Below are positions 22,190 through 43,799 of a stretch of 64,000 nt of DNA, piece after piece (the stretch's first letter is position 1; each line of letters opens with the position of its first letter). The notes under the pieces were generated by a model that saw only the letters and a list, made by a program, of their open reading frames with translations, was not told the DNA's origin and did no database searches. Source of the stretch: Escherichia coli. GTDB lineage: Bacteria > Pseudomonadota > Gammaproteobacteria > Enterobacterales > Enterobacteriaceae. The stretch lies in NCBI RefSeq assembly GCF_003018235.1, contig NZ_CP027439.1; one strand, given 5' to 3'. A program made the translations under genes and the position numbers.

Positions 22190-22271
22190 AGGGCACCTTT
22201 AGAGACTATTTAACAGGTCTTTATAGTGTTCTAAAAAAGACCTCTTAACAAGTCTTTTTGTCATTTTACTC

Positions 22272-22316
22272 AATGTGCCGTAAAGCCCCGCCCTTCAGGG
22301 CGAGGAGGATGTCAAA
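22272..22316 (+). repeat. 45-bp direct repeat with hairpin, copy 1 (second copy at 26028..26072)
   Basis: AATGTGCCGTAAAGCCCCGCCCTTCAGGGCGAGGAGGATGTCAAA. Confidence 0.7.
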
Positions 22317-22412
22317 TAATAGGACCCCGAAAGGATTAGTAATGTGGCGTCTTTGCTACACAGGTGCTTTTGTAATATGTTGTATAGCGTACTCACTACA
22401 CAGGAGATGTGT

Positions 22413-22952
22413 ATGGCATTGTCACAGATCAGCGTTCGTATTGATGATGAACTCAAACAACGCACGGATGAAAAAATGAAACTGCTGAGAACCAACCCCA
22501 CGCAGGCCATTACGTTGCTCTATCAGTATATTGCTGAAAATGGGAAACTTCCCTTTACTGTCAGCACCCAACTCTTCACTTCAGAGGATTACACCCAAAA
22601 ATTAATCACCACAGTCAGATCTATTTATGAATACTGGCGCGCGCTTTCTGAGACATCAGCAACAACCAGAACGAAAAGTGGAATGGCCTATTCAATGGCA
22701 ATGGCAGCACATGTTTCGAAGCTGCACAGCGATCTGATACACAACTGCGGCACCTTGAGTGGTGAAGAAGTTGCCTCATTAATGATTGTTATGGAGGACA
22801 TTCTTTCTACGCCGCCATCTTTTTATCGCGGAGAAGCGCCCGATCAGGTGTTTCAGGATAAATTAAACGCTGCTGACCAAACTATTCTGATGATTGAAAA
22901 ATGTCATGGTATGAATGTTCAACGCGGGGAAAATTTTTACGCTCTCAGATGA
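22413..22952 (+). CDS. DinJ/RelB-like ribbon-helix-helix N-terminus with ~130-aa C-terminal extension
   Basis: N-terminal MALSQISVRIDDELKQRTDEKMKLLRTNPTQAITLLYQYIAENGKLPF resembles DinJ antitoxins; C-terminal domain unrecognised. Confidence 0.5.
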   Translation: MALSQISVRIDDELKQRTDEKMKLLRTNPTQAITLLYQYIAENGKLPFTVSTQLFTSEDYTQKLITTVRSIYEYWRALSETSATTRTKSGMAYSMAMAAHVSKLHSDLIHNCGTLSGEEVASLMIVMEDILSTPPSFYRGEAPDQVFQDKLNAADQTILMIEKCHGMNVQRGENFYALR

Positions 22953-26074: not shown

Positions 26075-27349
26075 TCATCGTATCATTGCCACCGGGAGGT
26101 CAGTCCAGCGTGTCGTATATGCTGGTGACAACATTTCGCGCTTCATTTGCCACTCAGGAGCTATGCCTCGCCCCGCAAACCACACTTTCCCAAGTCCAGA
26201 ATGGTTAATACCGTCCACGACTTTCATCAATTGATTACTGTTGCTTCGGGGCAGAGTATCATCAAACAGATTCAACTGTGAAACTCCGGTCGGCGTAAAA
26301 TCGTTCAGCATGCAGCCTGCCCTTACATAGCGGTGGCCATTCACCCAGATCCTGTCCAGGGCTTTGACGGCAGCGGCAATGATGTCCGGTGTATCCTGCG
26401 TGGGGATGAGCAGCTTTTCACTGGCCAGATTACCGTAGTAGGGCTCATTTACGGCAAACGGCGATGTTTTCACAAATACGACAATATGCCTGCAGAACTG
26501 CCGTTCGCCGCGCAGCTTTTCCGCAGCACGCTCAGCGTACTGACAGACTGCCTGACGCAGGGCTTCATACGTTGTGATACGCTCCCCAAAAGACCTGCTG
26601 CAGACAATCTGCTGTTTCGGCGGGGGAGCTTCTTCAAGCGAAATACAGCTTTCTCCGTTGAGTTCCCGGACCGTTCTCTCCAGTACAACGTTGAAATTCT
26701 TCCGGATAAATACGGGGTTCGCGCGCGCCAGCTGCAGTGCAGTGGTGATGCCCATTGTGCTTAGTTTCCTGGATATCCTGCTGCCAACTCCCCAGATTTC
26801 TTCCACCGGCTGCAGTGAAAGCAGTTTCTCCGTTCGTTTCGGATTGTGTGATGTCAGGGCAAGCACACCACCGAATTGTGGCCATTCCTTGGACGCCCAT
26901 TGCGCGCTTTTAGCCAGCGTTTTGGTTGGCCCCATCCCGACACCTATTGTCAGCCCCGTTCCTGAGCGCACGTGTTCGCGTAGCTGCCGCCCAAAGTCCT
27001 CATAGTCGATGCAGTTGTCTATACCACGGATATCGAGAAACATCTCATCGATGCTGTACTGTTCCACACGTGGCGCCAGCTCTTCTAGGTGAGTCATCAC
27101 CCTGTTAGACATGGACGCGTACAGCTCGTAATTGCTTGAGAACACGATGATCTGCTCAGAGAATTCCGCCTTCTTCAGTTGAAACCACGGCACTCCCATT
27201 TTGATACCCAGCAACTTCGCTTCTTTTGAACGGGCGATAACGCAACCATCATTGTTACTGAGTACCACAACCGGCTTGTTTCGCAAATCAGGTCGAAATA
27301 CTTTCTCGCAGCTGGCATAAAATGAATTCACATCAGCGAGCGCAAACAT
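26075..27349 (-). CDS. umuC: Y-family translesion DNA polymerase V catalytic subunit (UmuC/MucB-type)
   Basis: 424 aa; N-terminal [41 protein letters not shown]. Confidence 0.9.
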
Positions 27350-27771
27350 CAGCGTACCTCACGCGTCTTGTGTATGAATGCCGTCACTACCCCGAAAATC
27401 TGCAGATCTTCCGGATAGAGGGTGGGGTAGGCTGGATTCATCGGCAGCAGGGCAATACGGGGCTTAAGCTGCAGGCGTTTGACAGTAAACTCGCCGTCAA
27501 TTTCAGCAATAACGATGTCCCCCTGCAGTGGTTTTTCAGCTTTATCGACCACCATCAGATCACCGGAGTGCAACCCCATATTCTGCATCGAATCACCTAT
27601 GGCCCGGACAAAGAAAGTTGCAGCCGGACGTCGGATACAGTAGGCATTCAGATCCAGTTCGTCTTCGGTGTAGTCTGCGGCCGGTGACGGAAAACCTGCT
27701 GGGCAACGTTCGGTGAAAAGTGGTGCGGTAGATAGTTCTGGTTCAGGTGCCGCTGGAACAAAAAGGATCAT
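27349..27771 (-). CDS. umuD: UmuD/MucA-type protein (LexA-like self-cleaving peptidase)
   Basis: GFPSPAADY and GDSM...K motifs; start MILFVPAAP; stop overlaps umuC start. Confidence 0.85.
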
Positions 27772-27793
27772 GGTATACTTCTTTAAATACCTG

Positions 27794-27809
27794 TTTATAT
27801 ATACAGTAT
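27794..27809. promoter_or_regulatory. LexA (SOS) box upstream of umuDC
   Basis: CTGTTTATATATACAG = CTGT-N8-ACAG, ~25 bp upstream of umuD start. Confidence 0.8.
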
Positions 27810-27892
27810 AATTTAAGATATTTTCCATTCCGCAAGCTGAATTTTACGCTGCCATGCCAGGTGATTGTTCTGGCGAACAAAACAGATGCGTG

Positions 27893-28251: not shown

Positions 28252-29139
28252 ATGTCTAATAAAATCAATGAACAATTCCTGAATATCAAGGAAATTAACA
28301 AGCGAACGGGAGAAGAGCTCACGCTTATATCCACAAGTGAGTCCAGTGTTCAGGTAGTTCCGTTGATGCGCCTTGGTGTTTTTGTCCCGACTCTTAAAGG
28401 GACCGATAAAGCTAAAATTACCCGCAATACCGTTGATGCTTCGAAAGATTTTAATACGCTTTCGCTCTACAGCTCTGAGGGATTCGAGAAGGTCATTATT
28501 AGTGGTCCCCGACTTGATATGGACACTGATTTTAAAGTTTGGGTTGGCATAATTTCCGTTCTGACAGACAGTGATCATCCGATCACCAAAGAAGGAAAAA
28601 TCGTGATACCTTTCAGCGAATTTGCGCATCGCTGCGGATTCCCACGGGGGAGGATGAAACAGGAACTTCGCACTCGCCTGAAAGACTCGATAAAGAAGAT
28701 TATGTCCACAATTGTCGAATTTTCGAAAGACTCCGGGAAACCAACAGAGAAGACGCAGATGGTGCAACTCATGGGGGAGTCCACAATAGACATTGGTAAT
28801 GATCTTGTTCTGCTTACACCCAGTATGTCTTTAAAAGATCTTTACGCCAGTGAGTATAAAGTCCTGCTCAAGCTAAAAGCGCTAAAAAGCCTGGCTCGTA
28901 AGGAGTCTGCTCAGGCTCTGTATCTCTATTTGGAAGGTCTGCCCACAAATCCTGCTCCAGTTAGTATTAAGCGTTTTCGCGAACGTCTCAACCTTACATC
29001 CAGAACTGCACTGCAGAATGCCACCATTAAGAAAGCTCTAAAGCAGCTGGAAGAAATTGGTTATCTGGAATATCAGGAAATGAGGAGTGGCAGGGACATC
29101 GCGTTTAATATCATCAAACGTAATCCGAAGCTTCAGTAA
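28252..29139 (+). CDS. repA: Replication initiator RepA of a RepFIB-type (iteron) replicon
   Basis: 295 aa; PVALMRLGVFVP-like N-terminus, ITGPRLDMDTDFKVW and NPKL C-terminus match RepFIB RepA. Confidence 0.85.
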   Translation: MSNKINEQFLNIKEINKRTGEELTLISTSESSVQVVPLMRLGVFVPTLKGTDKAKITRNTVDASKDFNTLSLYSSEGFEKVIISGPRLDMDTDFKVWVGIISVLTDSDHPITKEGKIVIPFSEFAHRCGFPRGRMKQELRTRLKDSIKKIMSTIVEFSKDSGKPTEKTQMVQLMGESTIDIGNDLVLLTPSMSLKDLYASEYKVLLKLKALKSLARKESAQALYLYLEGLPTNPAPVSIKRFRERLNLTSRTALQNATIKKALKQLEEIGYLEYQEMRSGRDIAFNIIKRNPKLQ

Positions 29140-29245
29140 GCTACTGTATGCTACATATTGTCCCATTATCTTGAGCGATAACTCCCAAAGTATTCATCTC
29201 GCTGTTATGAGACATTTGTTAATAGCATACAGTAGACATTTCAGT
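29140..29245. repeat. Downstream iterons of the replicon
   Basis: GCTACTGTATGCTACATATTG and inverted ATAGCATACAGTAGACATTTC after repA. Confidence 0.6.
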
Positions 29246-29560
29246 TATGTGGCCTCAGCGTCGTGTGCGGGCTGTGCCGTGCCTCCAACTTAGCCGGGTT
29301 GGCGTTGATGCAAGGGTACGCTTCGCCGCTGCGGTCACCCGGTCCCTCCTTCCCGTCTGCCGTGATTTTCCGGTCGTTCACCCGCTCAGATTTCGCGGTA
29401 TCACCCTCCAACTCCCGTCAGCCGAGTGCGTCAGGCTGCGGCTTCCCTTGCGCCCCTGCATCCCCGCCTTATCGCCCGGCTTTTATGGAGGCACGGCACC
29501 GCCCGGTGTCGCGGAATATGTGAACAACGGAGGAAATCCCATGCAGTATGCGAAACTCCC

Positions 29561-29986
29561 ATGCAGTATGCGAAACCTGTCACTCTGAACGTTGAAGAGT
29601 GCGACCGTCTGTCTTTTCTGCCTTACCTGTTTGGCCTGGATTTTCTGTATGCCGAAGCGTCTGTATACGCGCTGGCGAAACAAATGATGCCGGAATATCA
29701 GGGAGGTTTCTGGCACTTCATCCGCCTGCCGGACGGTGGCGGTTACATGATGCCGGATGGCGACCGTTTCCACATGGTGAACGGTGCAAACTGGTTTGAC
29801 CGTACCGTGAGTGCTGATGCCGCAGGCATCATTCTGATTTCCCTTGTGATTAACCGCCAGTTGTGGCTGTACCACGACAGCGGGGATGCAGGACTGACCC
29901 AGCTTTACCGGATGCGCGATGCGCAGTTGTGGCGTCACATCGAATTTCACCCTGAATGCAACGCGATTTACGCGGCACTGGACTGA
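29561..29986 (+). CDS. klcA: KlcA/ArdB-family anti-restriction protein
   Basis: 141 aa; LSFLPYLFG...[19 protein letters not shown]...[13 protein letters not shown] pattern. Confidence 0.75.
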
Positions 29987-30032
29987 TTAACGGACGGGGC
30001 GGCAATGCCGCCCCTGTAAAGGAGACGAGAAC

Positions 30033-30455
30033 ATGTACTGTACTGTTAAAGAAATTATCCGCGAAGTGCTGGATACAGACGTGCCGGACAGTGAATGCGT
30101 TTTTGCCGTGGTGCTGACACGTGGGGATGTGCGTCACATAGCCCAGGACTGGAGTCTGACAGACGATGAGCTGGAAGCCGTCATGCAGCGGCTGGACGAT
30201 GCCTTTGAGCATGGTGCGGATGTCAGCATTGTTCACGACGTTGTTCGTGAACTGATGGAGGAAAAGCGCGCCAGCCGTCAGGTGACAGTCCCGGCGGTGA
30301 TGCTGGAAAAAGTGATGGCGCTGGCAGGCAGTGAAATGAAGCGCCTGTATGCCGTCGGGAGTGAGAACGGGGGCGACGGTGACGCATTCGTCAGGGAGGA
30401 ACGCGAAGCAATAAACGTTGTGTTACAGGCGCTGGACGGGGAGCACATGTCATGA
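30033..30455 (+). CDS. Hypothetical leading-region protein
   Basis: 140-aa ORF between klcA and the Frpo-like repeat. Confidence 0.5.
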   Translation: MYCTVKEIIREVLDTDVPDSECVFAVVLTRGDVRHIAQDWSLTDDELEAVMQRLDDAFEHGADVSIVHDVVRELMEEKRASRQVTVPAVMLEKVMALAGSEMKRLYAVGSENGGDGDAFVREEREAINVVLQALDGEHMS

Positions 30456-30643
30456 ATATCAGCACGGAAACCCGCGAAATTCTGCGCAATTACAAAGCCG
30501 TGATTAATGCGTGGCGTCGTGAAATGGGACAGAAACCGCTCACCACCGCACAGATTGTTGATGAAATCTGCGATTTTGTGGCGAATCAGCAGGCGGTTTT
30601 CCTCGGTGGTCACTACATCCTTCAGGGCAGCAGAAACAGGTGA
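30452..30643 (+). CDS. Hypothetical small protein
   Basis: 63-aa ORF overlapping the upstream stop. Confidence 0.35.
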   Translation: MNISTETREILRNYKAVINAWRREMGQKPLTTAQIVDEICDFVANQQAVFLGGHYILQGSRNR

Positions 30644-30867
30644 TACAGGGGCAGGCGGTGGAGGCCGCCTGTCAGCCCGCGCGAAAACCCCTGGCAGGCT
30701 GACGCCTGCCGGAAGGGAAGCGGGCCACGCTGACGCGTCGCCCGTTACCCTTCCTGTTTGTGATGTGCCCGGAATGTTTTTTTCTGATGTTATTTTTCTG
30801 TGGTTACCGTGCTTGTTATTGTTCTTCTTCTTTTTCCTCTTCCTCTTCTTTCCGTTCCTCTCCTGTT

Positions 30868-31395
30868 TATGGCTTTTCCGGGCGTCCCCCTGACGGGGCG
30901 GGCTGTCGTGAACGGAGCCAGCGAAGCTGTCTCCGCCCTGGCGGGCTTCCATCCCTGACGCGAAACCCTGGCTTGCAGCGACCGTTCCGGTCGCGCCGCC
31001 TCTGTCGCGCCGTGGCCTGCGCTCCTGGCATCCCGGCAAAAGGCCGCCGGGATGTAAGGGGCAACGCCGTTTCGCGCACGCGCTCTCCGTCGTTGCGGCG
31101 GGCCCCTGCTCATTGCCTGCCGGGTGCCACACACCCGTATGAGTCCCTGTCGCCGGGGGCTGAGACAGCCACAACCTGCCGCACTGACTGTCCAGGGTAA
31201 ATGAACAGCCCACAAAATTTTTTACCCAAAAACCGGTAAAAAATTTTGCGTTCTGCCCAGGACAGGTGCGTCAGGCCGTGGCAGTGATGCCCCTTGCGGC
31301 GAAGGTTCTCAAACGGGTGAAGTTCATACCACAGGGAATACAGCAGCAGGTTCCCGCGAAACGTCAAAACCGCGGCTCCCGAAACTCAACGGGTG
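30868..31395 (+). repeat. Frpo/ssi-like leading-region repeat, copy 1
   Basis: ~500-bp GC-rich element shared with 34163..34700 and 39676..40128; contains hairpin AAAATTTTTTACC-N8-GGTAAAAAATTTT. Confidence 0.75.
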
Positions 31396-31907
31396 ATGTT
31401 CTTTAAAAATCAGGATTTATTTCAGCCTCCGGCAATACGCATTTATTTGTTCTGTCAGTCATCCGGCTGACAGGTAATGAGAACGCAGGAACAGAAGGAG
31501 GAAAACACCGGAAAGCGTCAGATGCAGATATGAAAAAAGCAGGTCAGGGACCTGCTTAATCCATGCCGCAGAGACTGCACGAACAGTTTTTGCGGCTCCA
31601 GTCAATCGTCATAAGAGGCTAAATTATGACAATAAGTATTGTTTCACCTTCCGCAGCGGCTGTAAAGCCCCGCCGTCATCCCCGTTTCAGACGCGAAGAC
31701 ATCCCCGCGCCGGAAATTGACCCCGTGCTGAAAGCCTTCGGGCGACACATAGCCCGGAGTTTTCACCGGGGGCGTGGTGCACACATCCCCGCCATGAAAA
31801 ACACGGCCTTCGGGCAGGTGCTCCGCACACTCGAACTGAAACGCGCTTTTAACTGATGAGGTGAGCCGCCCCGCGAGGGGCGGCAACAGACGGAAGGAGA
31901 ACATTTT

Positions 31908-33269
31908 ATGACATTAGCAGCAATCACCATGACCGCCCCGGAAGCCGCCAGCCCTGTGCAGATGTACCGCGCGACCTACTCACCGGATGACAACAAACTG
32001 CGCCTGTATGCCGCGTCACGTCTTGACCCGGAGACGTATAAGAAAGTCCATGATGCCGGTTTCCGCTGGGCACCAAAACAGGCGCTGTTTGTCGCGCCAG
32101 CTTGGACACCGGGCCGGGAAGATGTGCTCCTCTCACTTGCCGGAGAGATTGAGGATGAAGACAGCACACTCGCTGAACGTCAGGAAGCACGGGCGGAGCG
32201 GTTTACTGGATACAGCGGAAAGCGGGCCAGTGAATCCGCACAGGCACTTGATGAAGTGGAAAGACTGGCCGCGATGATCCCGCCCGGTCAGCCCATTCTT
32301 GTGGGGCATCACAGCGAACGCCGCGCCCGTCGTGATGCGCAGCGTATTGAAAACGGCATGAAACGTGCTGTGATGCTCTTTGAACGTGCAGAATACTGGG
32401 AAGAGCGGGCGCGCTCGGCACTGCTTCACGCGAAGTATAAAGAACGTCCGGACGTTCGCTGGCGTCGTATCAAAAAAATCGAAGCTGATTTGCGCAAGTC
32501 TGAAAAGACCATCGCGCAGTCGCAGAAATATCTGACGATGTGGCGGGCTGAATCGCTGGATCTGAATATGGCAAAACTCATCAGCAGTCATGACCATATC
32601 AGCGCCTGTTTCCCGCTGGATACGTATCCGCGCCCGGCAGAAAAAAGCCAGTATGAAGGAAGTCGCTCGTTATGGTCGGCCCTGGATGATGACATCATCA
32701 CCACGGAGCAGGCCCGTGAAATTGCGATCCGCTGTCATGAACGGCAGATTCAGCGTCAGCAACGCTGGGTTAACCACTATCAGAACCGCCTGATCTATGA
32801 GCGTGCCATGCTGGACGAAAGCGGCGGCGTGGTTACCCGGACACAGGATTTTGAGCCGGGCGGACAGGTTTTCAGCCGGGGTGAGTGGCTGACCATCATC
32901 CGCGTGAACAAAAGCAACGGGGCGGTGAGTTCAGTCACAACGCCAAATTACAGTTTTCTCGGGTACAGCGGCACGATGAAAGTGACGCCCGATCGCATCA
33001 CGGACTACAAAGCACCATCGGCAGAAGAGGCTGCCGTCGCCAGCCAGGCCGCGAAGCGTCCGCCGGTAGTCAACTATCCGGGGGAAGGTTTCCGGGAAAT
33101 GACAAAGGCACAGTGGGCCGCCCTGCCCCGGGACTGTAAGGCCGTGCGCAGTGTGGCAGAAGCAGAAGACCACGGGGCATACCGCTACCGCCGCACAATG
33201 GACAATAATTTCCGTCTGGTGAATGTGTATATCACCGACATGAAAATTACGGAAATCCCACAGAAATAA
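31908..33269 (+). CDS. Hypothetical leading-region protein
   Basis: 453-aa ORF with GGAAGGAG RBS, first gene after Frpo-like copy 1. Confidence 0.7.
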   Translation: MTLAAITMTAPEAASPVQMYRATYSPDDNKLRLYAASRLDPETYKKVHDAGFRWAPKQALFVAPAWTPGREDVLLSLAGEIEDEDSTLAERQEARAERFTGYSGKRASESAQALDEVERLAAMIPPGQPILVGHHSERRARRDAQRIENGMKRAVMLFERAEYWEERARSALLHAKYKERPDVRWRRIKKIEADLRKSEKTIAQSQKYLTMWRAESLDLNMAKLISSHDHISACFPLDTYPRPAEKSQYEGSRSLWSALDDDIITTEQAREIAIRCHERQIQRQQRWVNHYQNRLIYERAMLDESGGVVTRTQDFEPGGQVFSRGEWLTIIRVNKSNGAVSSVTTPNYSFLGYSGTMKVTPDRITDYKAPSAEEAAVASQAAKRPPVVNYPGEGFREMTKAQWAALPRDCKAVRSVAEAEDHGAYRYRRTMDNNFRLVNVYITDMKITEIPQK

Positions 33270-33315
33270 GGTATATCCCCCCGGGAAATCCCCGGGGGAT
33301 GACGGAGATAATGAC

Positions 33316-33879
33316 ATGCACAGTCAGTTAAAAGAACGTATCCGGCTGATGCGCGCAAGGCTGGATAACGCCGCGCCGGTTGCTGAAATCCGGGCTGAAT
33401 CTCAGCTTTTTGTGACTCCTGCCCCGGTCTGTGATCGCCTGGTGACGCTGGCGGAGATCAGCAACCGTGATCACATTCTGGAACCCTCTGCCGGCACCGG
33501 GGCCATACTGCGGGCGATTCGGGATACCGCGCCGGGGGCCATGTGTGATGCGGTGGAAATCAACAGCGGGCTGGTCCGGTATCTGCGGGAAAATTTTAAC
33601 GGTGTCAGGGTTCAGTGTGGCGACTTCATGGAATGGCAGCCGGTGCAGTATTACAGCCGGGTTATCATGAATCCGCCGTTCAGCCACGGGCAGGATATCC
33701 GGCATATCCTGCGGGCCTTTTCCCTGTTGCGTCCGGGTGGCGTGCTGGTTGCCGTCTGTCTGAACGGGCCGCGCCAGCAGGAGAAGCTGTTACCGTTTTC
33801 TGACGTCCGCGAGGAGCTGCCACGCGGCACGTTTGCTTATACCGATGTTCCGACGATGATTATTCGTCTGCGTGCCTGA
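33316..33879 (+). CDS. Orphan SAM-dependent DNA methyltransferase (N6-adenine type)
   Basis: SAM-binding EPSAGTGAIL and catalytic NPPF motif; no adjacent restriction enzyme. Confidence 0.75.
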   Translation: MHSQLKERIRLMRARLDNAAPVAEIRAESQLFVTPAPVCDRLVTLAEISNRDHILEPSAGTGAILRAIRDTAPGAMCDAVEINSGLVRYLRENFNGVRVQCGDFMEWQPVQYYSRVIMNPPFSHGQDIRHILRAFSLLRPGGVLVAVCLNGPRQQEKLLPFSDVREELPRGTFAYTDVPTMIIRLRA

Positions 33880-34060
33880 TGACTCCGGGCAGGCGGGAGG
33901 ACAAATGCCCGTCTGCCCGCGCCGGGAAAAGACCGCGCGCCGGTGGCGCTGAAAGGGGCCGCGCTCACGCGCCGCCCCTTACATTACGCGGACATTCTGC
34001 TGTGGGCTTCTGTCTTTTCAGACCTGTCATTTGTCTGTTACTGATGATGTTGTTGTTCCT

Positions 34061-34108
34061 GCTACTGCTACTGCTACTGCTACTGCTACTGCTACTGCTA
34101 CTGCTACT
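34061..34108. repeat. Hexanucleotide tandem repeat (GCTACT)x8
   Basis: Eight perfect tandem copies read directly, followed by a CT-rich tract. Confidence 0.9.
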
Positions 34109-34162
34109 GTTCTTCTTTTTTCTGCTGTTCTGATTACTGCCTGTTTTGTTGTTCTCCTGCTT

Positions 34163-34700
34163 ATGCCTTTTCCGGGCGTCCCCCTGGCGGGGCGGGCTGT
34201 CGTGAACGGAGCCAGCGAAGCTGTCTCCGCCCTGGCGGGCTTCCATCCCTGACGCGAAACCCCGGGCTTGCAGCGACCGTTCCGGTCGCGCCGCCTCTGT
34301 CGCGCCGTGGCCTGCGCTCCCGGCATCCCGGCAAAAGGCCGCCGGGATGTAAGGGGCAACGCCGTTTCGCAAACCGCGCTTCACGTCGTTGCGGCGGGTC
34401 CCTGTCCGTTGTTGTGTCCGGTGCCATTCACCTGTTTAAGCCCCTGTCGCCGGGGGCTGATACAGCCACAACCGTCTCCGCCAGTCCAGGGGTGAAATGT
34501 ACATCCCGCAAAACTTTTTGCCCAAAAGCAGGCAAAAACTTTTGCGGTCTGCCCCCGGACAGTCGTTTCCGGCCGTGGCAGTGATGCCCCTTGCGGCGAA
34601 GGTTCTCAAAAAGGTGATGGTGAATACCGGAGGGAACAAAAGGCAGGTCCCCGCAAAACGTCAAAACCGCGGCTCCCGAAACTCAAAAGATGATGGGGGC
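34163..34700 (+). repeat. Frpo/ssi-like leading-region repeat, copy 2
   Basis: Near-identical blocks to copy 1 (GCGTCCCCCTG...GGCAACGCCGTTTCGC) and copy 3. Confidence 0.75.
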
Positions 34701-34728
34701 TGAAAACATCAACAGAAGGAGGCACATC

Positions 34729-35558
<830 letters not shown>

Positions 35559-35621
35559 GAGAGGTGCCGGACGGGAACGCGTCCGGCAGACATACAACCA
35601 TCCCGGTCAAAGGAGAAATAT

Positions 35622-37580
35622 ATGTCAGTTACAGAGTCTAAGACAAAAACGGAGCGTAAATCCAGCCGTAAACCTGCAAAAACGCAGGAAACAGTCCTGT
35701 CTGCCCTGCTGGCGCAGACGGAGGAAGTGAGCGTGCCGCTGGCCTCACTGATTAAATCACCGCTGAATGTGCGCACGGTGCCGTATTCTGCGGAGTCCGT
35801 CAGCGAACTGGCGGACTCCATTAAAGGCGTCGGCCTGTTACAGAATCTGGTTGTTCATGCCCTGCCAGGTGACCGTTACGGTGTCGCCGCAGGTGGTCGC
35901 CGACTGGCTGCACTCAACATGCTGGCAGAGCGTGGCATCATTCCGGCTGACTGGCCTGTCCGTGTGAAGGTCATTCCGCAGGAGCTGGCGACGGCGGCAT
36001 CAATGACTGAAAACGGTCATCGTCGGGATATGCACCCTGCTGAACAGATTGCCGGATTCCGCGCAATGGCGCAGGAAGGCAAAACACCTGCACAAATCGG
36101 TGATTTGCTGGGCTATTCACCCCGCCATGTCCAGCGAATGCTGAAACTGGCAGATCTTGCGCCTGTCATCCTCGATGCGCTGGCAGAAGACCGCATCACC
36201 ACCGAACACTGTCAGGCGCTGGCACTGGAGAACGACACCGCGCGTCAGGTGCAGGTGTTTGAAGCCGCCTGCCAGTCAGGATGGGGTGGAAAACCGGAAG
36301 TGCAGACCATTCGTCGTCTGGTGACCGAAAGTGAAGTGGCGGTGGCGGGGAACAGTAAATTCCGCTTCGTGGGGGCTGATGCCTTCTCGCCAGATGAACT
36401 GCGCACCGATTTGTTCAGCGACGACGAGGGTGGCTATGTGGACTGTGTTGCGCTCGATGTCGCCCTGCTGGAAAAACTCCAGGCTGTCGCAGAGTTCCTT
36501 CGGGAAGCCGAAGGCTGGGAATGGTGCGCCGGACGTATGGAGCCTGTTGGTGAGTGCCGTGAGGATGCCGGAACATACCGCTGTCTGCCGGAGCCGGAAG
36601 CGGTGCTGACGGAGGCGGAAGAAGAACGCCTGAACGAACTGATGGCACGTTACGACGCGCCGGAAAACCAGAGTGAGGAATCCGACCTGCTGGAAGCCGA
36701 AATGAAGCTGATGCGCTGCATGGCGAAGGTCAGGGCGTGGACGCCGGAGATGCGTGCCGGAAGTGGCGTGGTGGTGTCCTGGCGTTATGGCAACGTGTGT
36801 GTCCAGCGTGGTGTGCAGTTGCGCAGTGAGGATGATGTGGCTGATAACGATTACCGCACGGAACAGGTGCAGGAGAAAGCCTCAGTGGAGGAAATCAGTC
36901 TGCCGCTGCTGACGAAAATGTCCTCAGAGCGCACGCTGGCAGTCCAGGCGGCACTGATGCAGCAATCAGACAAATCCCTGGCACTTCTGGCATGGACACT
37001 CTGTCTGAATGTATTTGGCAGTGGAGCGTACAGCAATCCCGCCAGAATCCGCCTGGAATGTGAGCATTATTCGCTGACCAGCGATGCGCCGTCAGGGAAG
37101 GAAGGTGCCGCATTCATGGCGATGATGGCAGAAAAAGCCCGTCTTGCCGCCCTGCTGCCGGATGGATGGGCACGGGATATGACGACGTTCCTGTCACTCA
37201 GTCAGGAGGTGCTGTTATCACTGCTCAGTTTCTGCACCGCGTGCAGTATCCACGGTGTCCAGACCCGTGAGTATGGTCACACGTCACGCAGTCCGCTGGA
37301 TTCGCTGGAAAGCGCCATCGGCTTTCACATGCGCGACTGGTGGCAGCCGACAAAAGCAAACTTCTTCGGACACCTGAAAAAGCCGCAGATTATCGCAGCC
37401 CTGAATGAGGCAGGACTGTCCGGTGCTGCACGGGACGCGGAGAAGATGAAGAAAGGCGATGCGGCTGAACATGCAGAGTTCCACATGAAAGACAACCGCT
37501 GGGTGCCTGGCTGGATGTGTGCACCACGCCCACAGACGGATGCCACTGAACGCACCGATAACCTGGCTGATGCCGCCTGA
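35622..37580 (+). CDS. ParB-like nuclease domain protein (F-type leading region)
   Basis: 652 aa; N-terminal ParB/Srx motif (SLIKSPLNVRTVPYS...GLLQNLVV...GGRRLAALNML). Confidence 0.8.
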   Translation: MSVTESKTKTERKSSRKPAKTQETVLSALLAQTEEVSVPLASLIKSPLNVRTVPYSAESVSELADSIKGVGLLQNLVVHALPGDRYGVAAGGRRLAALNMLAERGIIPADWPVRVKVIPQELATAASMTENGHRRDMHPAEQIAGFRAMAQEGKTPAQIGDLLGYSPRHVQRMLKLADLAPVILDALAEDRITTEHCQALALENDTARQVQVFEAACQSGWGGKPEVQTIRRLVTESEVAVAGNSKFRFVGADAFSPDELRTDLFSDDEGGYVDCVALDVALLEKLQAVAEFLREAEGWEWCAGRMEPVGECREDAGTYRCLPEPEAVLTEAEEERLNELMARYDAPENQSEESDLLEAEMKLMRCMAKVRAWTPEMRAGSGVVVSWRYGNVCVQRGVQLRSEDDVADNDYRTEQVQEKASVEEISLPLLTKMSSERTLAVQAALMQQSDKSLALLAWTLCLNVFGSGAYSNPARIRLECEHYSLTSDAPSGKEGAAFMAMMAEKARLAALLPDGWARDMTTFLSLSQEVLLSLLSFCTACSIHGVQTREYGHTSRSPLDSLESAIGFHMRDWWQPTKANFFGHLKKPQIIAALNEAGLSGAARDAEKMKKGDAAEHAEFHMKDNRWVPGWMCAPRPQTDATERTDNLADAA

Positions 37581-37634
37581 TGAACAACCACACCGCCCCG
37601 CCGGAGACGGGGCGGCAGCAAGGGAGATACCGTG

Positions 37635-38069
37635 ATGAAAACTGAACTGACCCTGAATGTATTACAGACCATGAACGCACAGGAATATGAAGATATCCGG
37701 GCTGCCGGAAGTGATGAACGCCGTGAGCTGACTCACGCCGTGATGCGGGAGCTGGATGCGCCGGATAACTGGACGATGAACGGCGAGTACGGCAGCGAGT
37801 TTGGCGGCTTTTTCCCCGTCCAGGTCCGTTTCACGCCTGCCCACGAACGTTTTCACCTGGCGTTATGTTCACCGGGCGATGTCTCTCAGGTCTGGGTGCT
37901 GGTTCTGGTGAATGCCGGTGGTGAGCCGTTTGCGGTGGTTCAGGTACAGCGGCGGTTTGCACCGGAAGCCGTCAGCCATTCACTGGCACTGGCGGCGTCA
38001 CTGGATACGCAGGGGTACAGCGTTAACGACATCATCCATATCCTGATGGCGGAAGGAGGTCAGGTATGA
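37635..38069 (+). CDS. psiB: Plasmid SOS inhibition protein B
   Basis: [40 protein letters not shown]... matches F PsiB. Confidence 0.95.
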
Positions 38070-38785
38070 GCGTACGTTCACAGGCACTGGTTCCCCTCAG
38101 CACAGAGCAACAGGCCGCATGGCGGGCGGTGGCGGAGACAGAAAAACGCCGCCATCAGGGTAACACGCTGGCGGAATATCCGTATGCGGGGGCGTTTTTC
38201 CGCTGTCTGAACGGAAGCCGCAGGATATCGCTGTCTGACCTGCGATTTTTCATGCCGTCCCTGACCGCAGAAGAACTGCACGGCAACCGTCTTCAGTGGC
38301 TGTATGCAGTCGATGTGCTGATTGAAACACAGGGCGAGGTCTGCCTCCTTCCCCTTCCCGGTGATGCAGCAGAGCGGTTGTTTCCGTCGGTGCGGTTTCG
38401 TGTCAGGGAGCGCAGTCGCCATAAATCCGCGCTGGTCATGCAGAAGTACAGCCGCCAGCAGGCACGGGAGGCAGAGCAGAAAGCCCGTGCGTACCAGGCG
38501 CTGGTCGCTCAGGCTGAAATCGAACTGGCATTCCATTCGCCGGAAACAGTCGGAAGCTGGCATGCACGCTGGAGTGACCGGGTGGCAGAGCATGACCTGG
38601 AAACCCTGTTCTGGCAGTGGGGCGAGCGTTTTCCGTCACTGGCCGGAATGGAACGCTGGCAGTGGCAGGATATGCCGTTCTGGCAGGTTATTGCGGAAGC
38701 CAGTCTTGCAGCAAGAGAGGCCGGTCACGCTGTCCGTGAGATGGAGCGGTGGATGGTGCCGAACAAACTCCGGGAGGCTGCGTGA
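38066..38785 (+). CDS. psiA: Plasmid SOS inhibition protein A
   Basis: 239 aa immediately after psiB with ATGA overlap; matches F PsiA. Confidence 0.9.
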
Positions 38786-39006
38786 TGCGGCAACAATCAC
38801 ACAGATTACCCGTAAACAGCCTGAATGAGCGGGTTATTTTCAGGAAAAGTGAGTGTGGTCAGCGTGCAGGGATATGGGCTATGATGTGCCCGGCGCTTGA
38901 GGCTTTCTGCCTCATGACGTGAAGGTGGTTTGTTGCCGTGTTGTGTGGCAGAAAGAAGATAGCCCCGTAGTAAGTTAATTTTCATTAACCACCACGAGGC
39001 ATCCCT

Positions 39007-39219
39007 ATGTCTAGTCCACATCAGGATAGCCTCTTACCGCGCTTTGCGCAAGGAGAAGAAGGCCATGAAACTACCACGAAGTTCCCTTGTCTGGTGTGTG
39101 TTGATCGTGTGTCTCACACTGTTGATATTCACTTATCTGACACGAAAATCGCTGTGCGAGATTCGTTACAGAGACGGACACAGGGAGGTGGCGGCTTTCA
39201 TGGCTTACGAATCCGGTAA
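39007..39219 (+). CDS. mok: Mok, overlapping leader reading frame of the hok/flm locus
   Basis: 70-aa frame overlapping hok in another frame, as in hok/sok-type loci. Confidence 0.6.
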
Positions 39220-39223
39220 GTAG
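39065..39223 (+). CDS. hok: Hok/FlmA-family type I toxin
   Basis: Manual translation [52 protein letters not shown] (52 aa); Sok antisense RNA expected on the opposite strand just upstream. Confidence 0.9.
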
Positions 39224-39675
39224 CAACCTGGAGGCGGGCGCAGGCCCGCCTTTTCAGGACTGATGCTGGTCTGACTACTGAAGCGCCTTTATAAAGGGGC
39301 TGCTGGTTCGCTGGTAGCCCCTTTCTCCTTGCTGATGTTGTACGGGCATGAACAACCTGACTTCAGGAAGATCGTTTCCCTTCAGGAACGGGGATGAACG
39401 CGCGCCTGCGGCGCCCGTTCTTTTCCCCCGCCTTCTCTGGTTATGGCCTGTCAGAAATCACATCACCTTCCCTGTGATTATTCTCTTTTTCTTCCTGCTC
39501 TGATTCTGACTACTGCAGTGTTGTCCTGTCTGCTAGGCGCACCTTCGGCTCCCGGCTGCCTGGCGGCATCCGGTCGTCAGGCCCGACTCCGACAGGCAGC
39601 TGCTGGCGCACCTGCCAGTCTCCGCCGAACCCGCTGGCGCGGTTTCGGGCTGTCGCTACGGTCCGATGCGTGAAA

Positions 39676-40128
39676 ACCACAGGCTTGCAGCGACCGTTCC
39701 GGTCGCGCCGCCTCTGTCGCGCCGTAGCCTGCGCTCCCGGCATCCCGGCAAAAGGCCGCCGGGATGTAAGGGGCAACGCCGTTTCGCAAACCGCGCTTCA
39801 CGTCGTTGCGGCGGGTCCCTGCCCGTTGTTGTGTCCGGTGCCATTCACCTGTTTAAGCCCCTGTCGCCGGGGGCTGATACAGCCACAACCTGCCGCACTG
39901 ACTGTCCAGGGTAAATGAACAGCCCACAAAATTTTTTACCCAAAACCCGGTAAAAAATTTTGCGTTCTGCCCAGGACAGGTGCGTCAGGCCGTGGCAGTG
40001 ATGCCCCTTGCGGCGAAGGTTCTCAAACAGGTGATGGTTAATACCGGAGGGAACAAAAGGCAGGTCCCCGCAAAACGTCAAAACCGCGGCTCCCGAAACT
40101 CAACAGATGATGGGGGCTGAAAACCAGA
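39676..40128 (+). repeat. Frpo/ssi-like leading-region repeat, copy 3
   Basis: Shares the 3' block with copy 1 and the central block with copy 2. Confidence 0.75.
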
Positions 40129-40137
40129 GAAAGCAGG

Positions 40138-40425
40138 ATGAGTACCCGAAATATCCACGTTAACACCGCGTCGTACACGCTTCTTGTTGCCGGGAAGAAA
40201 AAAAACACCGGGGAAGAGTGGGACGTCCTGGAATTCAGCAGCCTGACTGAGCTGAAAAAATATCGCAAAAGCCACCCGGAAAAGATGGCCTTCAGCTATA
40301 GCTACGCGCTCAGCCAGGGTGTGGATACGCAGTTCCGCCATATCAACATTGCGGAAGCTGATCACTTCAAACAGTTCCTGCGTCAGATTAAGCGTGCCGG
40401 CCTCGATATCCGGGCGATCTGCTGA
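40138..40425 (+). CDS. Hypothetical leading-region protein
   Basis: 95-aa ORF immediately after Frpo-like copy 3. Confidence 0.6.
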   Translation: MSTRNIHVNTASYTLLVAGKKKNTGEEWDVLEFSSLTELKKYRKSHPEKMAFSYSYALSQGVDTQFRHINIAEADHFKQFLRQIKRAGLDIRAIC

Positions 40426-40542
40426 CCGGATGTGATGAATATCCCTCCTGATTGTTGCAATGTTGTTAATGGAGAACGGGGGGATGATATTAAGCGGAAA
40501 AATTTTTTATTAAATTTATTCTTTCATAAAGGAGTAGCTGTT

Positions 40543-41364
40543 ATGCGATTAGCTTCCCGTTTTGGTCGGTATAATTCCATCCGCCGTGAACGTCCTTTAA
40601 CGGATGATGAATTAATGCAGTTCGTGCCTTCGGTATTTTCCGGTGATAAACATGAGTCCCGGAGTGAACGTTATACGTATATTCCAACAATCAATATCAT
40701 CAATAAGTTACGTGATGAAGGTTTCCAGCCATTCTTTGCCTGTCAGAGTCGGGTTCGTGATTTGGGGCGTCGGGAATACAGTAAATATATGTTACGTCTT
40801 CGTAGGGAAGGGCATATTAACGGGCAGGAAGTTCCTGAAATTATCCTGCTTAATTCACATGATGGTTCATCCAGTTATCAGATGATCCCGGGAATTTTTC
40901 GTTTTGTCTGCACAAATGGCCTGGTGTGCGGAAATAATTTTGGCGAAATCCGCGTTCCACATAAAGGTGATATTGTCGGGCAGGTTATCGAGGGAGCGTA
41001 TGAAGTGCTCGGTGTCTTTGATAAGGTCACTGATAATATGGAGGCAATGAAAGAAATTCATCTTAACAGTGACGAGCAACATTTATTTGGCAGAGCTGCC
41101 CTGATGGTCAGGTATGAAGATGAAAATAAAACGCCGGTGACGCCTGAACAGATAATTACTCCCCGTCGTCGGGAGGATAAACAGAACGATCTCTGGACAA
41201 CCTGGCAGCGGGTTCAGGAGAATATGATAAAAGGTGGATTATCGGGGCGAAGTGCCTCCGGGAAAAATACCAGGACAAGAGCCATTACAGGTATTGATGG
41301 TGATATAAGAATCAACAAAGCATTATGGATGATTGCCGAACAGTTCAGGGAGTGGAAGTCATGA
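40543..41364 (+). CDS. DUF932-like plasmid protein
   Basis: 273 aa from MRLASRFGRYNS with AAAGGAG RBS; resembles DUF932 family. Confidence 0.6.
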   Translation: MRLASRFGRYNSIRRERPLTDDELMQFVPSVFSGDKHESRSERYTYIPTINIINKLRDEGFQPFFACQSRVRDLGRREYSKYMLRLRREGHINGQEVPEIILLNSHDGSSSYQMIPGIFRFVCTNGLVCGNNFGEIRVPHKGDIVGQVIEGAYEVLGVFDKVTDNMEAMKEIHLNSDEQHLFGRAALMVRYEDENKTPVTPEQIITPRRREDKQNDLWTTWQRVQENMIKGGLSGRSASGKNTRTRAITGIDGDIRINKALWMIAEQFREWKS

Positions 41365-41415
41365 TAATATAAGTAAAGCCCCGAAAAATTTTTCGGGGCT
41401 TTACTTATATTATCA
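41362..41415. terminator. 54-bp perfect palindrome, bidirectional terminator between convergent genes
   Basis: TGATAATATAAGTAAAGCCCCGAAAAATTTTTCGGGGCTTTACTTATATTATCA. Confidence 0.7.
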
Positions 41416-41660
41416 TCCTGCGGCATTGCTATGTCGTCTGATATGCCTCAATTTCATCAACTGGCTTTTCGGTAGTATGTAAATATTGTGCCCGCGAAAA
41501 ATGGTCTGGCAGGAGGCTGCGCAGTTACCGGATATATATAAGATGGGTTCCCGCTTTGCGGGGCTTCGGCCAGTCAGTATTGTCACTCATATGATATTTT
41601 TGTGTGTGGCCTTCCATGCCGCTTTTGCGGCATAACCGATATCTGACAATGTCTGTAAGA

Positions 41661-42170
41661 TTAATTGTTCTGCACGCTGTTAATTTCCGGAAGTGATTTC
41701 TTCGTGGTCGGAACCTGGATGCCTTTACTGCTCTTTATCCCGGTATAAATCCGGTAAACCTCTGATGCGTAGGCAAGACGTCTCTGGTTCTGGCGTTCGG
41801 TCTTCCTGAATCCAGCATTGTATGCACCAACGGCCTCCCAGGAGACGCCCCATTTTTTAAAGGCTATTGCCAGATAATAAGCACCGGTATAAATGTTCAT
41901 GCAGGGATCTGTTGTCAGATGTTCCGGCTTAATTCCATAGCGGGCCAGTTCGTTAAAATGCTGGGAATCTACCTGCATCAGTCCGCTGCCATATCCCGTT
42001 ACCGGATTAATACCGATGGCATTAACCCGGTAACGGGATTCTTTCCATGATATTGCTCTCAGTAAATCAGGATCTATTTTGTAATCCCGGCCTGCAAGAT
42101 CAAAGCAATCAGTGGCATGGCAGATCTCATTTATAAACATCAGGCAGATGGCTAACATCCATTTTTTCAT
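41661..42170 (-). CDS. Lytic transglycosylase (F orf169 / gene X type)
   Basis: 169 aa from [12 protein letters not shown] (signal peptide) with Slt-domain motifs; location next to oriT as in F. Confidence 0.85.
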
Positions 42171-42199
42171 TTTTCCACCTCTGGTGACTTTATCCGTAA

Positions 42200-42540
42200 A
42201 TAATTTAACCCACTCCACAAAAAGGCTCAACAGGTTGGTGGTTCTCACCACCAAAAGCACCACACCCCACGCAAAAACAAGTTTTTGCTGATTTTTCTTT
42301 ATAAATAGAGAGTTATGAAAAATTAGTTTCTCTTACTCTCTTTATGATATTTAAAAAAGCGGTGGTACTGACTATTTTTATAAAAAACATTATTTTATAT
42401 TAGGGGCGCTGCTAGCGGCGCGGTGTGTTTTTTTATAGGATAACGCCAGGGGCGCTGCTAGCGGTGCGTCCCTGTTTGCATTATGAATTTTAGTGTTTCG
42501 AAATTAACTTTATTTTATGTTCAAAAAAGGTAATCTCTAA
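42200..42540 (-). other. oriT: Origin of transfer (oriT), F-type
   Basis: Minus strand carries the F nic-region sequence (GGTGTGGTGCTTTTGGTGGTGAGAACCACC...); direct repeats GGGGCGCTGCTAGCGG upstream of traM. Confidence 0.8.
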
Positions 42541-42923: not shown

Positions 42924-43034
42924 AAGAAATTTGACTTCGTTCAAATATCAGAGTTTTTATGATTTAAAAGGGTGACAGTACGAAAGATAATTAGTATATT
43001 AATTACGTGGTTAATGCCACGTTAAAATTTGAAT

Positions 43035-43113
43035 TTGAAAATCGCCGATGCAGGGAGTTCACGTCTCCCTGCATCGACTGTCCATAGAATCCTTTGTGAG
43101 GAGGTTCCTATGT
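43035..43113 (-). ncRNA. finP: FinP antisense RNA (approximate coordinates)
   Basis: Stable hairpin GATGCAGGGAG-N8-CTCCCTGCATC in the traJ leader; position matches F finP; ends not determinable. Confidence 0.4.
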
Positions 43114-43799
43114 ATCCGATGGATCGTATTCAACAAAAACATGCTCGTCAAATAGATCTGCTGGAAAATCTGACGGCAGTTATTCAGGATTATCCAAATC
43201 CAGCCTGTATCAGGGACGAAACTGGAAAATTTATTTTTTGCAATACGCTGTTTCATGAGTCATTTCTTACACAAGATCAAAGTGCTGAAAAATGGCTTCT
43301 GTCGCAGAGAGATTTTTGTGAATTGATCTCTGTCACAGAGATGGAAGCATACAGGAATGAGCATACGCATCTTAATCTTGTAGAGGATGTTTTTATTCAG
43401 AACAGATTCTGGACAATATCTATTCAGTCATTTCTTAATGGACACAGAAATATCATTCTGTGGCAATTTTATGATGCTGCTCATGTTCGTCATAAAGACA
43501 GTTATAATCAAAAAACGATTGTCAGTGATGATATCAGAAATATAATCAGAAGAATGAGTGATGATTCTTCTGTATCATCATATGTAAATGATGTCTTTTA
43601 CTTATATAGCACCGGAATCAGTCATAATGCTATAGCAAGAATATTAAACATATCCATCTCCACATCAAAGAAACACGCGTCTCTGATATGCGACTACTTC
43701 TCTGTTTCTAATAAAGATGAGTTAATCATCTTACTCTACAATAAAAAGTTTATTCATTATTTGTACGAGAAGGCTATGTGTATCATAAATACGCGTTAA
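43110..43799 (+). CDS. traJ: Transfer operon activator TraJ
   Basis: Start MYPMDRIQQKHARQIDLLENL with GAGG RBS; position between traM and traY. Confidence 0.85.
   Translation: MYPMDRIQQKHARQIDLLENLTAVIQDYPNPACIRDETGKFIFCNTLFHESFLTQDQSAEKWLLSQRDFCELISVTEMEAYRNEHTHLNLVEDVFIQNRFWTISIQSFLNGHRNIILWQFYDAAHVRHKDSYNQKTIVSDDIRNIIRRMSDDSSVSSYVNDVFYLYSTGISHNAIARILNISISTSKKHASLICDYFSVSNKDELIILLYNKKFIHYLYEKAMCIINTR

Follow-up and report, generated by a model that had tools for sequence, protein, structure and literature searches.

The plasmid contig NZ_CP027439.1 of Escherichia coli carries, between a replication initiator gene and the origin of transfer (oriT), a series of genes that an earlier note described as an anti-defence and establishment island with an orphan methyltransferase among its members. 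This raises the question of whether that methyltransferase, encoded in the 64,000-nucleotide (nt) stretch analysed here (the window), acts alone, and of how far the island around it extends and by what means it would be expressed. We addressed these questions with family scans (Pfam, NCBIfam and Rfam) and a listing of open reading frames (ORFs), using the F plasmid (NC_002483) as the reference. The methyltransferase appears to be one half of a split enzyme whose other half is the DUF3560 protein encoded just upstream; this relation is the only new point of the analysis, the rest being already known. As for the surroundings, positions ~29240-42262 very probably form a standard F-like (MOBF/MPF_F) leading region of four operons, each with a hairpin single-stranded DNA (ssDNA) promoter ahead of it.

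A methyltransferase and a DUF3560 protein that resemble the halves of one enzyme

The gene at 33316-33879 on the + strand encodes a protein of 187 amino acids (aa) that we assigned, from its motifs, its match to M.TaqI and its homology to DarB, to the gamma-class (TaqI/EcoKI/DarB-like) NPPF methyltransferases. Its motifs follow the order QLFVTP (residues 30-35, the TP motif capping a helix), LEPSAGTG (55-62), DF and MNPPF (118-122), and they showed little or no variation among 22 homologues, the most distant of them at 51% identity. M.TaqI was the best match among sequences of the Protein Data Bank (PDB; E = 1.8e-6) and also the top Foldseek match of the AlphaFold2 model (mean predicted local distance difference test, pLDDT, 87; E = 1.7e-10, 25% identity), with HsdM-type chains ranking high. 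The protein further matched internal domains of giant phage-protein PHROGs (E ~1e-32), at least one family of which is annotated as a DNA methyltransferase, as well as residues 91-267 of P1 DarB (E = 6e-7). Among 'polyvalent' entry proteins, DarB typifies the clade of EcoKI/TaqI-like adenine methyltransferases, and an N-terminal TP motif with its helix is the signature of this EcoKI/TaqI/DarB DNA adenine methyltransferase clade (PMC5512222). As judged from sequence and model, adenine as the predicted target base and DNA as the predicted substrate are both well supported. A relationship to M.EcoGIX was also considered and rejected: the class is different, PF01555 gave no match, and no similarity was found to the 227-aa beta-class methylase of F.

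The protein ends ~65 residues past NPPF and lacks a target-recognition domain, whereas M.TaqI has ~170 extra residues that serve target recognition. No specificity (HsdS-like) gene adjoins the methyltransferase gene, which has its own GGAG 8 nt ahead of the ATG. The description of this gene as an orphan was therefore correct only in part: MNPPF is present and the neighbours are the DUF3560 gene and ssb, with no restriction enzyme, but the protein does not seem to be a lone enzyme, and instead looks like the catalytic half of a split DUF3560-methyltransferase.

The DUF3560 gene (31908-33269, + strand; 453 aa; PF12083, 127.6 bits) and the methyltransferase gene are collinear and 46 nt apart, in different frames, and do not encode one polypeptide. 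A search of 1.84 billion cluster representatives returned 3895 relatives of the DUF3560 protein, and domain architectures were counted in the best 150 of these. At least 560 aa were present in 102 of the 150, and 96 of these 102 long relatives had at the C-terminus a homologue of the 187-aa methyltransferase (E = 1e-17 to 1e-40); 94 of the long relatives carried [ND]PP[FYW], which was NPPF in nearly all of those listed. In most distant relatives, as these alignments indicate, DUF3560 and the methyltransferase are parts of one predicted protein of ~670 aa. This single-chain form was found on complete plasmids of Acidovorax, Alicycliphilus, Comamonas, Cupriavidus, Burkholderia and Pseudomonas. 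On pALIDE201 (MOBF/MPF_F) it is a 679-aa protein within an SSB-DUF932-…-KleA-RadC array, in which residues 22-458 align with the DUF3560 protein of the window (46% identical, E = 3e-126) and residues 496-679 with the methyltransferase, from residue 5 to its end (40% identical, E = 7e-33), and the break therefore falls in a Pro/Ala-rich linker. We rejected the explanation that the fused homologues are frameshift or assembly artefacts, as they comprise 96 cluster representatives, are 41-57% identical, and are annotated as single genes on complete plasmids.

The two-gene form is also conserved. Of the 4076 PLSDB records that matched the junction, 3992 had the two genes side by side (98%; ~5.5% of PLSDB), and a Paramixta plasmid retains the synteny of the pair at 58-69% identity. 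The protein is split independently on a metagenomic element, where the stop and start codons overlap and a Lar restriction-alleviation gene is close by (methyltransferase 36% identical, E = 7e-32). The metagenomic neighbours of fused forms were mobile-element genes (RadC, integrase, resolvase), and nothing among them was decisive. Taken at the level of sequence comparison, the pair in the window is best described as a split variant of the DUF3560-methyltransferase single-chain family.

A further arrangement was seen on a Pantoea-like contig (6839-8594), where DUF3560 is broken into ORFs of 191 aa and 152 aa that are followed by a 197-aa methyltransferase; the three ORFs belong to a leading region near SLT and TraM in which RadC and the LPD29/LPD30 polyvalent-protein domains occur too.

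The AlphaFold2 model of the DUF3560 protein (pLDDT 92.9) consists of a small α/β domain, a β-rich C-terminal part and a long helical bundle with many invariant arginines. Pfam scans of its N- and C-terminal segments returned nothing, and none of the listed papers that mention DUF3560 deals with its function, as judged by titles and abstracts. A loop, GQPILVGHHSExxAR (residues 123-140), was almost invariant in 67 DUF3560 homologues (41-75% identity); the loop is situated where the model has its sole stretch of lower confidence, and it might serve in catalysis or in metal binding.

We infer from these comparisons that the DUF3560 protein and the 187-aa methyltransferase act as one enzyme. Because the catalytic half lacks a recognition domain, the DUF3560 half would supply DNA engagement or targeting, and the pair would, by analogy with DarB and M.EcoGIX, methylate incoming plasmid DNA and thereby blunt restriction. 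The full proposal, of a two-subunit enzyme with its own Frpo promoter hairpin that is expressed within seconds of entry and blunts restriction by low-specificity methylation of the incoming DNA, with the structurally novel DUF3560 module as the DNA-engaging part, is a tentative one, which we put forward as possible rather than probable. If it is true, it would give a function to a gene pair that is among the commonest uncharacterised ones of leading regions. The cassette is present in ~4000 sequenced enterobacterial plasmids, many of which carry resistance or virulence genes, and it should be studied as a two-gene unit, as deletion of a single gene or expression of the methyltransferase only could yield false negatives.

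Alternative roles for the methyltransferase

Some observations count against a two-subunit DNA methyltransferase. A search of PDB structures with the DUF3560 model gave no significant or informative structural neighbour. F itself is without the whole cassette, and DUF3560 genes that are not followed by a methyltransferase may exist. In the Foldseek search of the methyltransferase model, TrmN, Trm11, Dim1/KsgA and ErmE scored nearly as well as M.TaqI, and the predicted substrate, DNA, has to be set against this resemblance to RNA amino-methyltransferases (TrmN, Trm11, KsgA/Erm).

The alternative that survives best is that the 187-aa protein works by itself as an orphan DNA adenine methyltransferase and that its DUF3560 neighbour is functionally unrelated. 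Its own ribosome-binding site and start codon, its fully intact set of catalytic motifs and the possible occurrence of DUF3560 genes alone would all suit such an enzyme, and orphan methyltransferases are a recognised class of leading-region genes in the published literature. However, an enzyme of this kind would have to work without the ~170 residues that M.TaqI uses for target recognition, and the fusion of the two modules in 96 of 102 long homologues, their contiguity in 98% of matching plasmids and the persistence of their synteny, down to 58% identity and in independent splits, would go unexplained. We consider this alternative unlikely.

It has also to be asked whether the enzyme methylates RNA (rRNA or tRNA, as do Erm, KsgA and TrmN) or protein, and alters host translation during establishment. 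Besides the Foldseek neighbours, weak NCBIfam matches to Erm and KsgA (well short of the cutoffs, with E = 1e-8 to 1e-4) and to PrmC point in this direction, and homologues are called rRNA methyltransferases in some sources. These matches are outweighed by M.TaqI as the best PDB sequence match, by the TP motif and helix of the DNA adenine clade, by the homology to P1 DarB and by the much stronger matches to giant phage proteins, and we regard an RNA or protein substrate as very unlikely.

Extent and gene content of the leading region

The leading region is bounded at ~29239 on the left and by the nic site at ~42262 on the right and thus goes beyond 29561-39223, the span of the earlier note: it continues to nic, and ygeA, ygeB/DUF932 and gene X also belong to it. 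The gene assignments and the shared orientation are far beyond chance, with family E-values of 1e-8 to 1e-110 for the named genes and 15 of the 16 genes in one orientation, on the + strand (binomial P = 2.6e-4). Thirteen of the 16 proteins were 88-99.6% identical to their F-plasmid counterparts, and the three without an F counterpart are those of orf76, DUF3560 and the methyltransferase. All 16 ORFs were intact, with 88-100% identity to functional relatives. Matches to the region came from more than 5000 PLSDB plasmids and, among the 5000 best-scoring ones, 1524 covered at least 80% of it. The ssb-psiB-psiA core and a hok/sok-type locus are present, as in F-like leading regions, and the tra region to the right of oriT appears complete up to the end of the window.

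KlcA/ArdB, the NPPF methyltransferase, Ssb, the 652-aa ParB-like protein, PsiB, PsiA and hok/mok were all found on the + strand, at or near the positions that the earlier note had given them. Its view that they form an anti-defence and establishment island that enters the recipient first agrees with published work on near-identical sequence and can be carried over by homology (88-99.6% identity). F-type leading regions are already documented as early-expressed islands of this kind, island enrichment has been published as well, and this copy is near-identical to thousands; the interpretation restates published work. Its gene list was incomplete in that it omitted the DUF1380 gene, orf63, orf76, the DUF3560 gene (453 aa) and the DUF905 gene, and it also left out three direct repeats of ~450 nt and four ssDNA-promoter hairpins. 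Its placement of these genes between RepFIB and oriT was correct on the oriT side (nic at 42257-42268), and the 'RepFIB' on the other side is a Rep_3 initiator, 45% identical to the RepFIB RepA of F.

The klcA gene, considered separately below, is followed by a gene for a 140-aa DUF1380 protein (30033-30455, +), for which the PF07128 match was weak (22.7 bits against a cutoff of 26) and the F neighbour 95% identical, and by orf63 (30452-30643, +), a conserved hypothetical gene that is 98% identical to an ORF of F and is hypothetical in related plasmids. The orf76 gene (31626-31856, +), with AAGAGG 8 nt before its ATG, is the first gene of the third-entering operon, that of the DUF3560 and methyltransferase genes; it is likewise hypothetical in related plasmids and had no Pfam or PHROG match. 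Overlapping its 5' untranslated region (UTR) and start codon is a match to the antisense small RNA AS-pc01 (31534-31631, −; RF02875, 109.6 bits against a gathering score of 79), with a promoter-like site at 31666-31638 and a terminator-like one at 31557-31537, both on the − strand. This RNA could silence the orf76-DUF3560-methyltransferase operon once the plasmid is double-stranded.

The next operon begins with the plasmid ssb gene (34729-35262, +; 177 aa; NF010292/PRK13732, 367 bits; 93% identical to F Ssb), followed by a gene for a 77-aa DUF905 protein homologous to YfjA (35325-35558, +; PF06006, 116 bits; 97% identical to F) and by herB, which is treated below. The SOS inhibitor gene psiB (37635-38069, +; PF06290, 213.9 bits) and psiA (38066-38785, +; PF06952, 133.3 bits) encode proteins 98.6% and 99.6% identical to those of F, respectively. 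A type I toxin-antitoxin locus, hok/mok/sok (flm), occupies 38891-39223 on the + strand (RF01794, NF007279, PF01848) and comprises a match to the sok model together with the leader (38891-39067, +; Rfam RF01794, 88.9 bits), mok, a 70-codon ORF from the ORF listing that overlaps hok (39007-39219, +), and hok itself (39065-39223, +; NF007279, 122.9 bits; PF01848, 76.6 bits). The match to the Rfam sok model (157 positions) is on the + strand, which corresponds to the leader of the hok mRNA; the ~65-nt Sok RNA would arise from the − strand.

Nearest to oriT are the homologues of ygeA (40138-40425, +; 95 aa; 98.9% identical to F YgeA) and ygeB (40543-41364, +; 273 aa; DUF932, PF06067, 175 bits; 98% identical to F), and the lytic transglycosylase gene X/orf169 (41661-42170, −; PF01464, 78 bits; 97.6% identical to F), the sole gene of the leading region in the opposite orientation, as in F. 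Deletion of ygeA in F reduced conjugation to 3.9% (Couturier et al.). The earlier note had named the methyltransferase and the ParB-like protein as the least characterised members; we would instead name the DUF3560 protein, orf76, the DUF1380 and DUF905 proteins and YgeA/YgeB.

The left neighbour of the region is the gene of the Rep_3 initiator (28252-29139). This initiator was found in only 3 PLSDB records, all of which have the same Rep-klcA junction; a rare replicon is joined here to a common leading-region backbone. Just left of Rep, opposite to the leading genes, is a pair of umuD-like (Peptidase_S24) and umuC-like (Y-family polymerase) genes (26075-27828, −).

Putative promoter hairpins and cassette exchange

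The three direct repeats of ~450 nt align with Frpo1 and Frpo2 of F and are homologues of its class-1 Frpo/ssi elements, all on the − strand. Copy 1 (30962-31413; −126 kcal/mol, z = -8.7) is upstream of the orf76-DUF3560-methyltransferase operon, where F has no copy at the same position; copy 2 (34257-34710; -127 kcal/mol, z = -8.5) is upstream of ssb, at the F Frpo2 position; and copy 3 (39674-40127; -137.6 kcal/mol, z = -11.7) is upstream of ygeA, at the F Frpo1 position. As − strand ssDNA, each copy was predicted to fold into an imperfect hairpin of ~300 nt (-126 to -138 kcal/mol), and none of the shuffled sequences folded as well. The fourth hairpin, of ~240 nt (29261-29505, −; z = -4.6 to -5.9, with no shuffled sequence as stable), is upstream of klcA and is a putative class-2 ssDNA promoter hairpin, the homologue of F 'ssp2'. 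The ~320 nt upstream of klcA are ~97% identical to those upstream of klcA/yfgB in F, in a homology block of ~29239-29560.

That these hairpins are promoters we propose by homology alone. In F, zygotic induction depends on Frpo (Couturier et al.), and RNA sequencing after donor elimination, together with 5' rapid amplification of cDNA ends, has distinguished three classes of promoter, of which class 2 is found upstream of klcA and ardA (PMC12672017). F ssp2 drives yfgB and also holds up synthesis of the complementary strand until it is resolved by UvrD (bioRxiv 10.64898/2026.01.09.698686). Deletion of ssp2 from F lowered transfer 5-fold into EcoKI recipients and 36-fold into EcoGIII recipients (Fraikin et al. 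2026, bioRxiv 10.64898/2026.01.09.698686), and in the same study transfer into wild E. coli strains became 21-fold lower to undetectable.

The repeats that carry the Frpo copies also appear to shape the gene content of the region. The relative pDEC5B-4 (NZ_CP038392) has, at 21935-22800, a hybrid Frpo composed of the left part of copy 2 of the window and the right part of copy 3, and at this site it lacks ssb through hok. The hybrid indicates that the repeats are recombination points at which cassettes of promoter and operon are gained and lost, as was foreseen for F (Couturier et al.). The gap in pDEC5B-4 is a repeat-mediated deletion, and it removed the hok/sok locus that is thought to guard against such events. 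The exchange of hairpin-defined cassettes by recombination between repeats explains the differences in leading regions among otherwise similar plasmids.

Just upstream of Frpo copy 2 there is a CT-rich (GCTACT)n microsatellite (34075-34130), which gives rise to a spurious poly-Leu ORF and is longer than in pDEC5B-4.

oriT and the entering strand

The nic-site core of oriT, GGGGTGT|GGTGC, is at 42257-42268 on the − strand and matches F exactly, within TTTGCGTGGGGTGTGGTGCTTTTGG; the nic sequence on that strand reads GGGGTGTGGTGC. To the right of nic is traM, followed by Rfam matches to FinP and the traJ 5' UTR at 43005-43116, and to the left are the leading genes. The nicked strand is transferred 5' first. 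As the nic sequence lies on the − strand, the − strand is the transferred one and is transferred toward lower coordinates, and it is therefore the template of the + strand leading genes. The earlier note had placed these genes on the strand that enters first; the shared orientation was correctly seen, but the entering strand is the template and not the coding strand. It follows from this geometry that each operon would already be inside the recipient when its upstream promoter arrives.

We suggest the following sequence of events. Transfer would begin at nic (42262, − strand) and proceed toward lower coordinates, and the four hairpins would mimic duplex promoters, so that the operons are transcribed by host RNA polymerase ahead of complementary-strand synthesis. 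Expression would end when the hairpins turn into duplex DNA, and the leftmost hairpin probably also holds up this synthesis and would thereby lengthen the time of expression. Among the products, KlcA/ArdB would inhibit type I restriction, Ssb, PsiB and PsiA would coat ssDNA and suppress the SOS response, and HerB would reprogram host transcription. The hok/sok locus would provide addiction and may also protect the block from repeat-mediated deletion, and YgeA and YgeB would have an important though uncharacterised role.

HerB, the ParB-like protein

The 652-aa ParB-like protein (35622-37580, +), with ParB_N and HTH_ParB domains, was 94% identical to F YfjB without gaps. The earlier note's inclusion of this protein among the least characterised ones does not hold, as YfjB, now renamed HerB, has been characterised in a 2026 preprint. 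This work (July 2026 preprint, PMC13370423) reports a crystal structure of D1-D2 with CTPγS and, by cryo-electron microscopy, a novel dimerisation domain in D4, as well as nucleoid-associated foci and chromosomal sites in chromatin immunoprecipitation sequencing; HerB reprograms host transcription and metabolism and so offsets the cost of acquisition. HerB is described there as binding CTP and associating with DNA (PMC13370423), and no report is made of the nuclease activity that the earlier note's term 'ParB-like nuclease-domain protein' implies. The residues cited there, Box II GGRRLAA (91-97), E130, R168, R172 and K175, are all conserved in the window, and the protein has the features of the ParB/HerB family, namely CTP-binding motifs (Box II GxxR and Box III with E130), a helix-turn-helix and the HerB-specific D3 and D4 domains, with 94% identity across all 652 residues. 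Its identity as HerB rests on the comparison with the F gene, as a search of PDB sequences, in a copy without the HerB structures, matched only canonical ParB, Spo0J and Noc chains. By its similarity to F HerB, the protein would be an establishment factor that reprograms host expression rather than an inhibitor of defence.

The klcA start and arguments against a working island

The klcA/ardB-family anti-restriction gene (29561-29986, +; 141 aa; PF03230, 89.7 bits against a cutoff of 25) is the homologue of F yfgB, its product being 94% identical to YfgB. A 20-bp tandem duplication, read from the sequence, covers its start: 29541-29560 is repeated at 29561-29580 on the + strand. The GGAGG at 29529-29533 now precedes the ATG at 29541, which opens an out-of-frame ORF of 15 codons, and the klcA ATG at 29561 is without a Shine-Dalgarno sequence. 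The duplication was present in no PLSDB or complete RefSeq E. coli match. It may weaken the anti-restriction function, since KlcA activity is expression-dependent and the homologue in F is important in countering restriction; alternatively, the duplication may be an artefact of sequencing.

Several points speak against the region being expressed early from its hairpins as an anti-defence island. KlcA may be poorly made from a start codon that is shifted away from its ribosome-binding site, and deletions of klcA or ardB on pB10 and RIP113 had no measurable effect, the activity depending on expression level. HerB is not anti-defence in the strict sense. A scan of 29000-42400 for the sigma-70 consensus found no -35/-10 pair in any hairpin, and inspection of the hairpins by eye found nothing beyond a TTGACG in the 5' arm and no convincing -10, so neither hexamers nor a start were assigned. 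Promoter activity and the roadblock were shown by others in F or pESBL, the evidence here being that of sequence, and in F deletions of Frpo2, ssb or psiB were neutral in isogenic matings (Couturier et al.). That the region is partly decayed in this plasmid, a conserved hitch-hiking backbone and not a working anti-defence island, would be in keeping with the parting of klcA from its ribosome-binding site, with the loss of cassettes by Frpo-Frpo recombination in relatives (pDEC5B-4 without ssb-hok and F without DUF3560-methyltransferase) and with the neutrality of Frpo2-operon deletions, but it is improbable in view of the 16 intact ORFs with their 88-100% identity to functional relatives, the retained hairpins, the seemingly complete tra region up to the window end and the strong effect of ssp2 deletion in F on transfer into defended hosts.

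Comparison with known systems

The leading region of F (NC_002483, ~56.7-66.2 kb; Manwaring 1999; Couturier 2023; Samuel 2024) has the genes between klcA and oriT in the order and orientation of the window, the same nic sequence, and Frpo1, Frpo2 and ssp2 at positions matching those of their homologues in the window. The window differs from F by an additional Frpo copy and the orf76-DUF3560-methyltransferase cassette, which are inserted between orf63 and ssb, by the absence of the upstream beta-class methylase module of F, and by the rare Rep_3 replicon that adjoins it. F HerB/YfjB (Virolle et al., 2026 preprint) has the same 652 aa and the same place between yfjA and psiB; the 42 substitutions in the protein of the window are at none of the cited functional residues. 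The plasmid pDEC5B-4 of E. coli O55:H7 (NZ_CP038392) shares the umuDC-Rep-klcA junction and the DUF3560-methyltransferase cassette, with a methyltransferase that is 100% identical, but is without ssb, yfjA, herB, psiB, psiA and hok.

With respect to the split enzyme, M.EcoGIX/M.BceJIII (Fomenkov 2020) is likewise an orphan methyltransferase of a leading region, located downstream of an ssDNA promoter and oriented to be expressed from the entering strand, and the role proposed for it, protection of the entering DNA, is the same. However, it is a single-strand-specific, beta-class enzyme with DPPY and a circularly permuted motif order, whereas the enzyme of the window is of the gamma class with NPPF. 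P1 DarB and the polyvalent methyltransferases (Iyer et al. 2017) belong to the same clade, sharing the TP motif, LEPSAGTG, N-x-P-F and a C-terminal LPxGTF, and DarB, which is delivered or expressed at DNA entry, protects against type I restriction. DarB-type proteins are giant single chains in which the methyltransferase is combined with an LPD36 domain at the N-terminus and an SNF2 helicase at the C-terminus; in contrast, the methyltransferase of the window has a DUF3560 module as its putative partner, is without a helicase, and is split from that partner over two genes.

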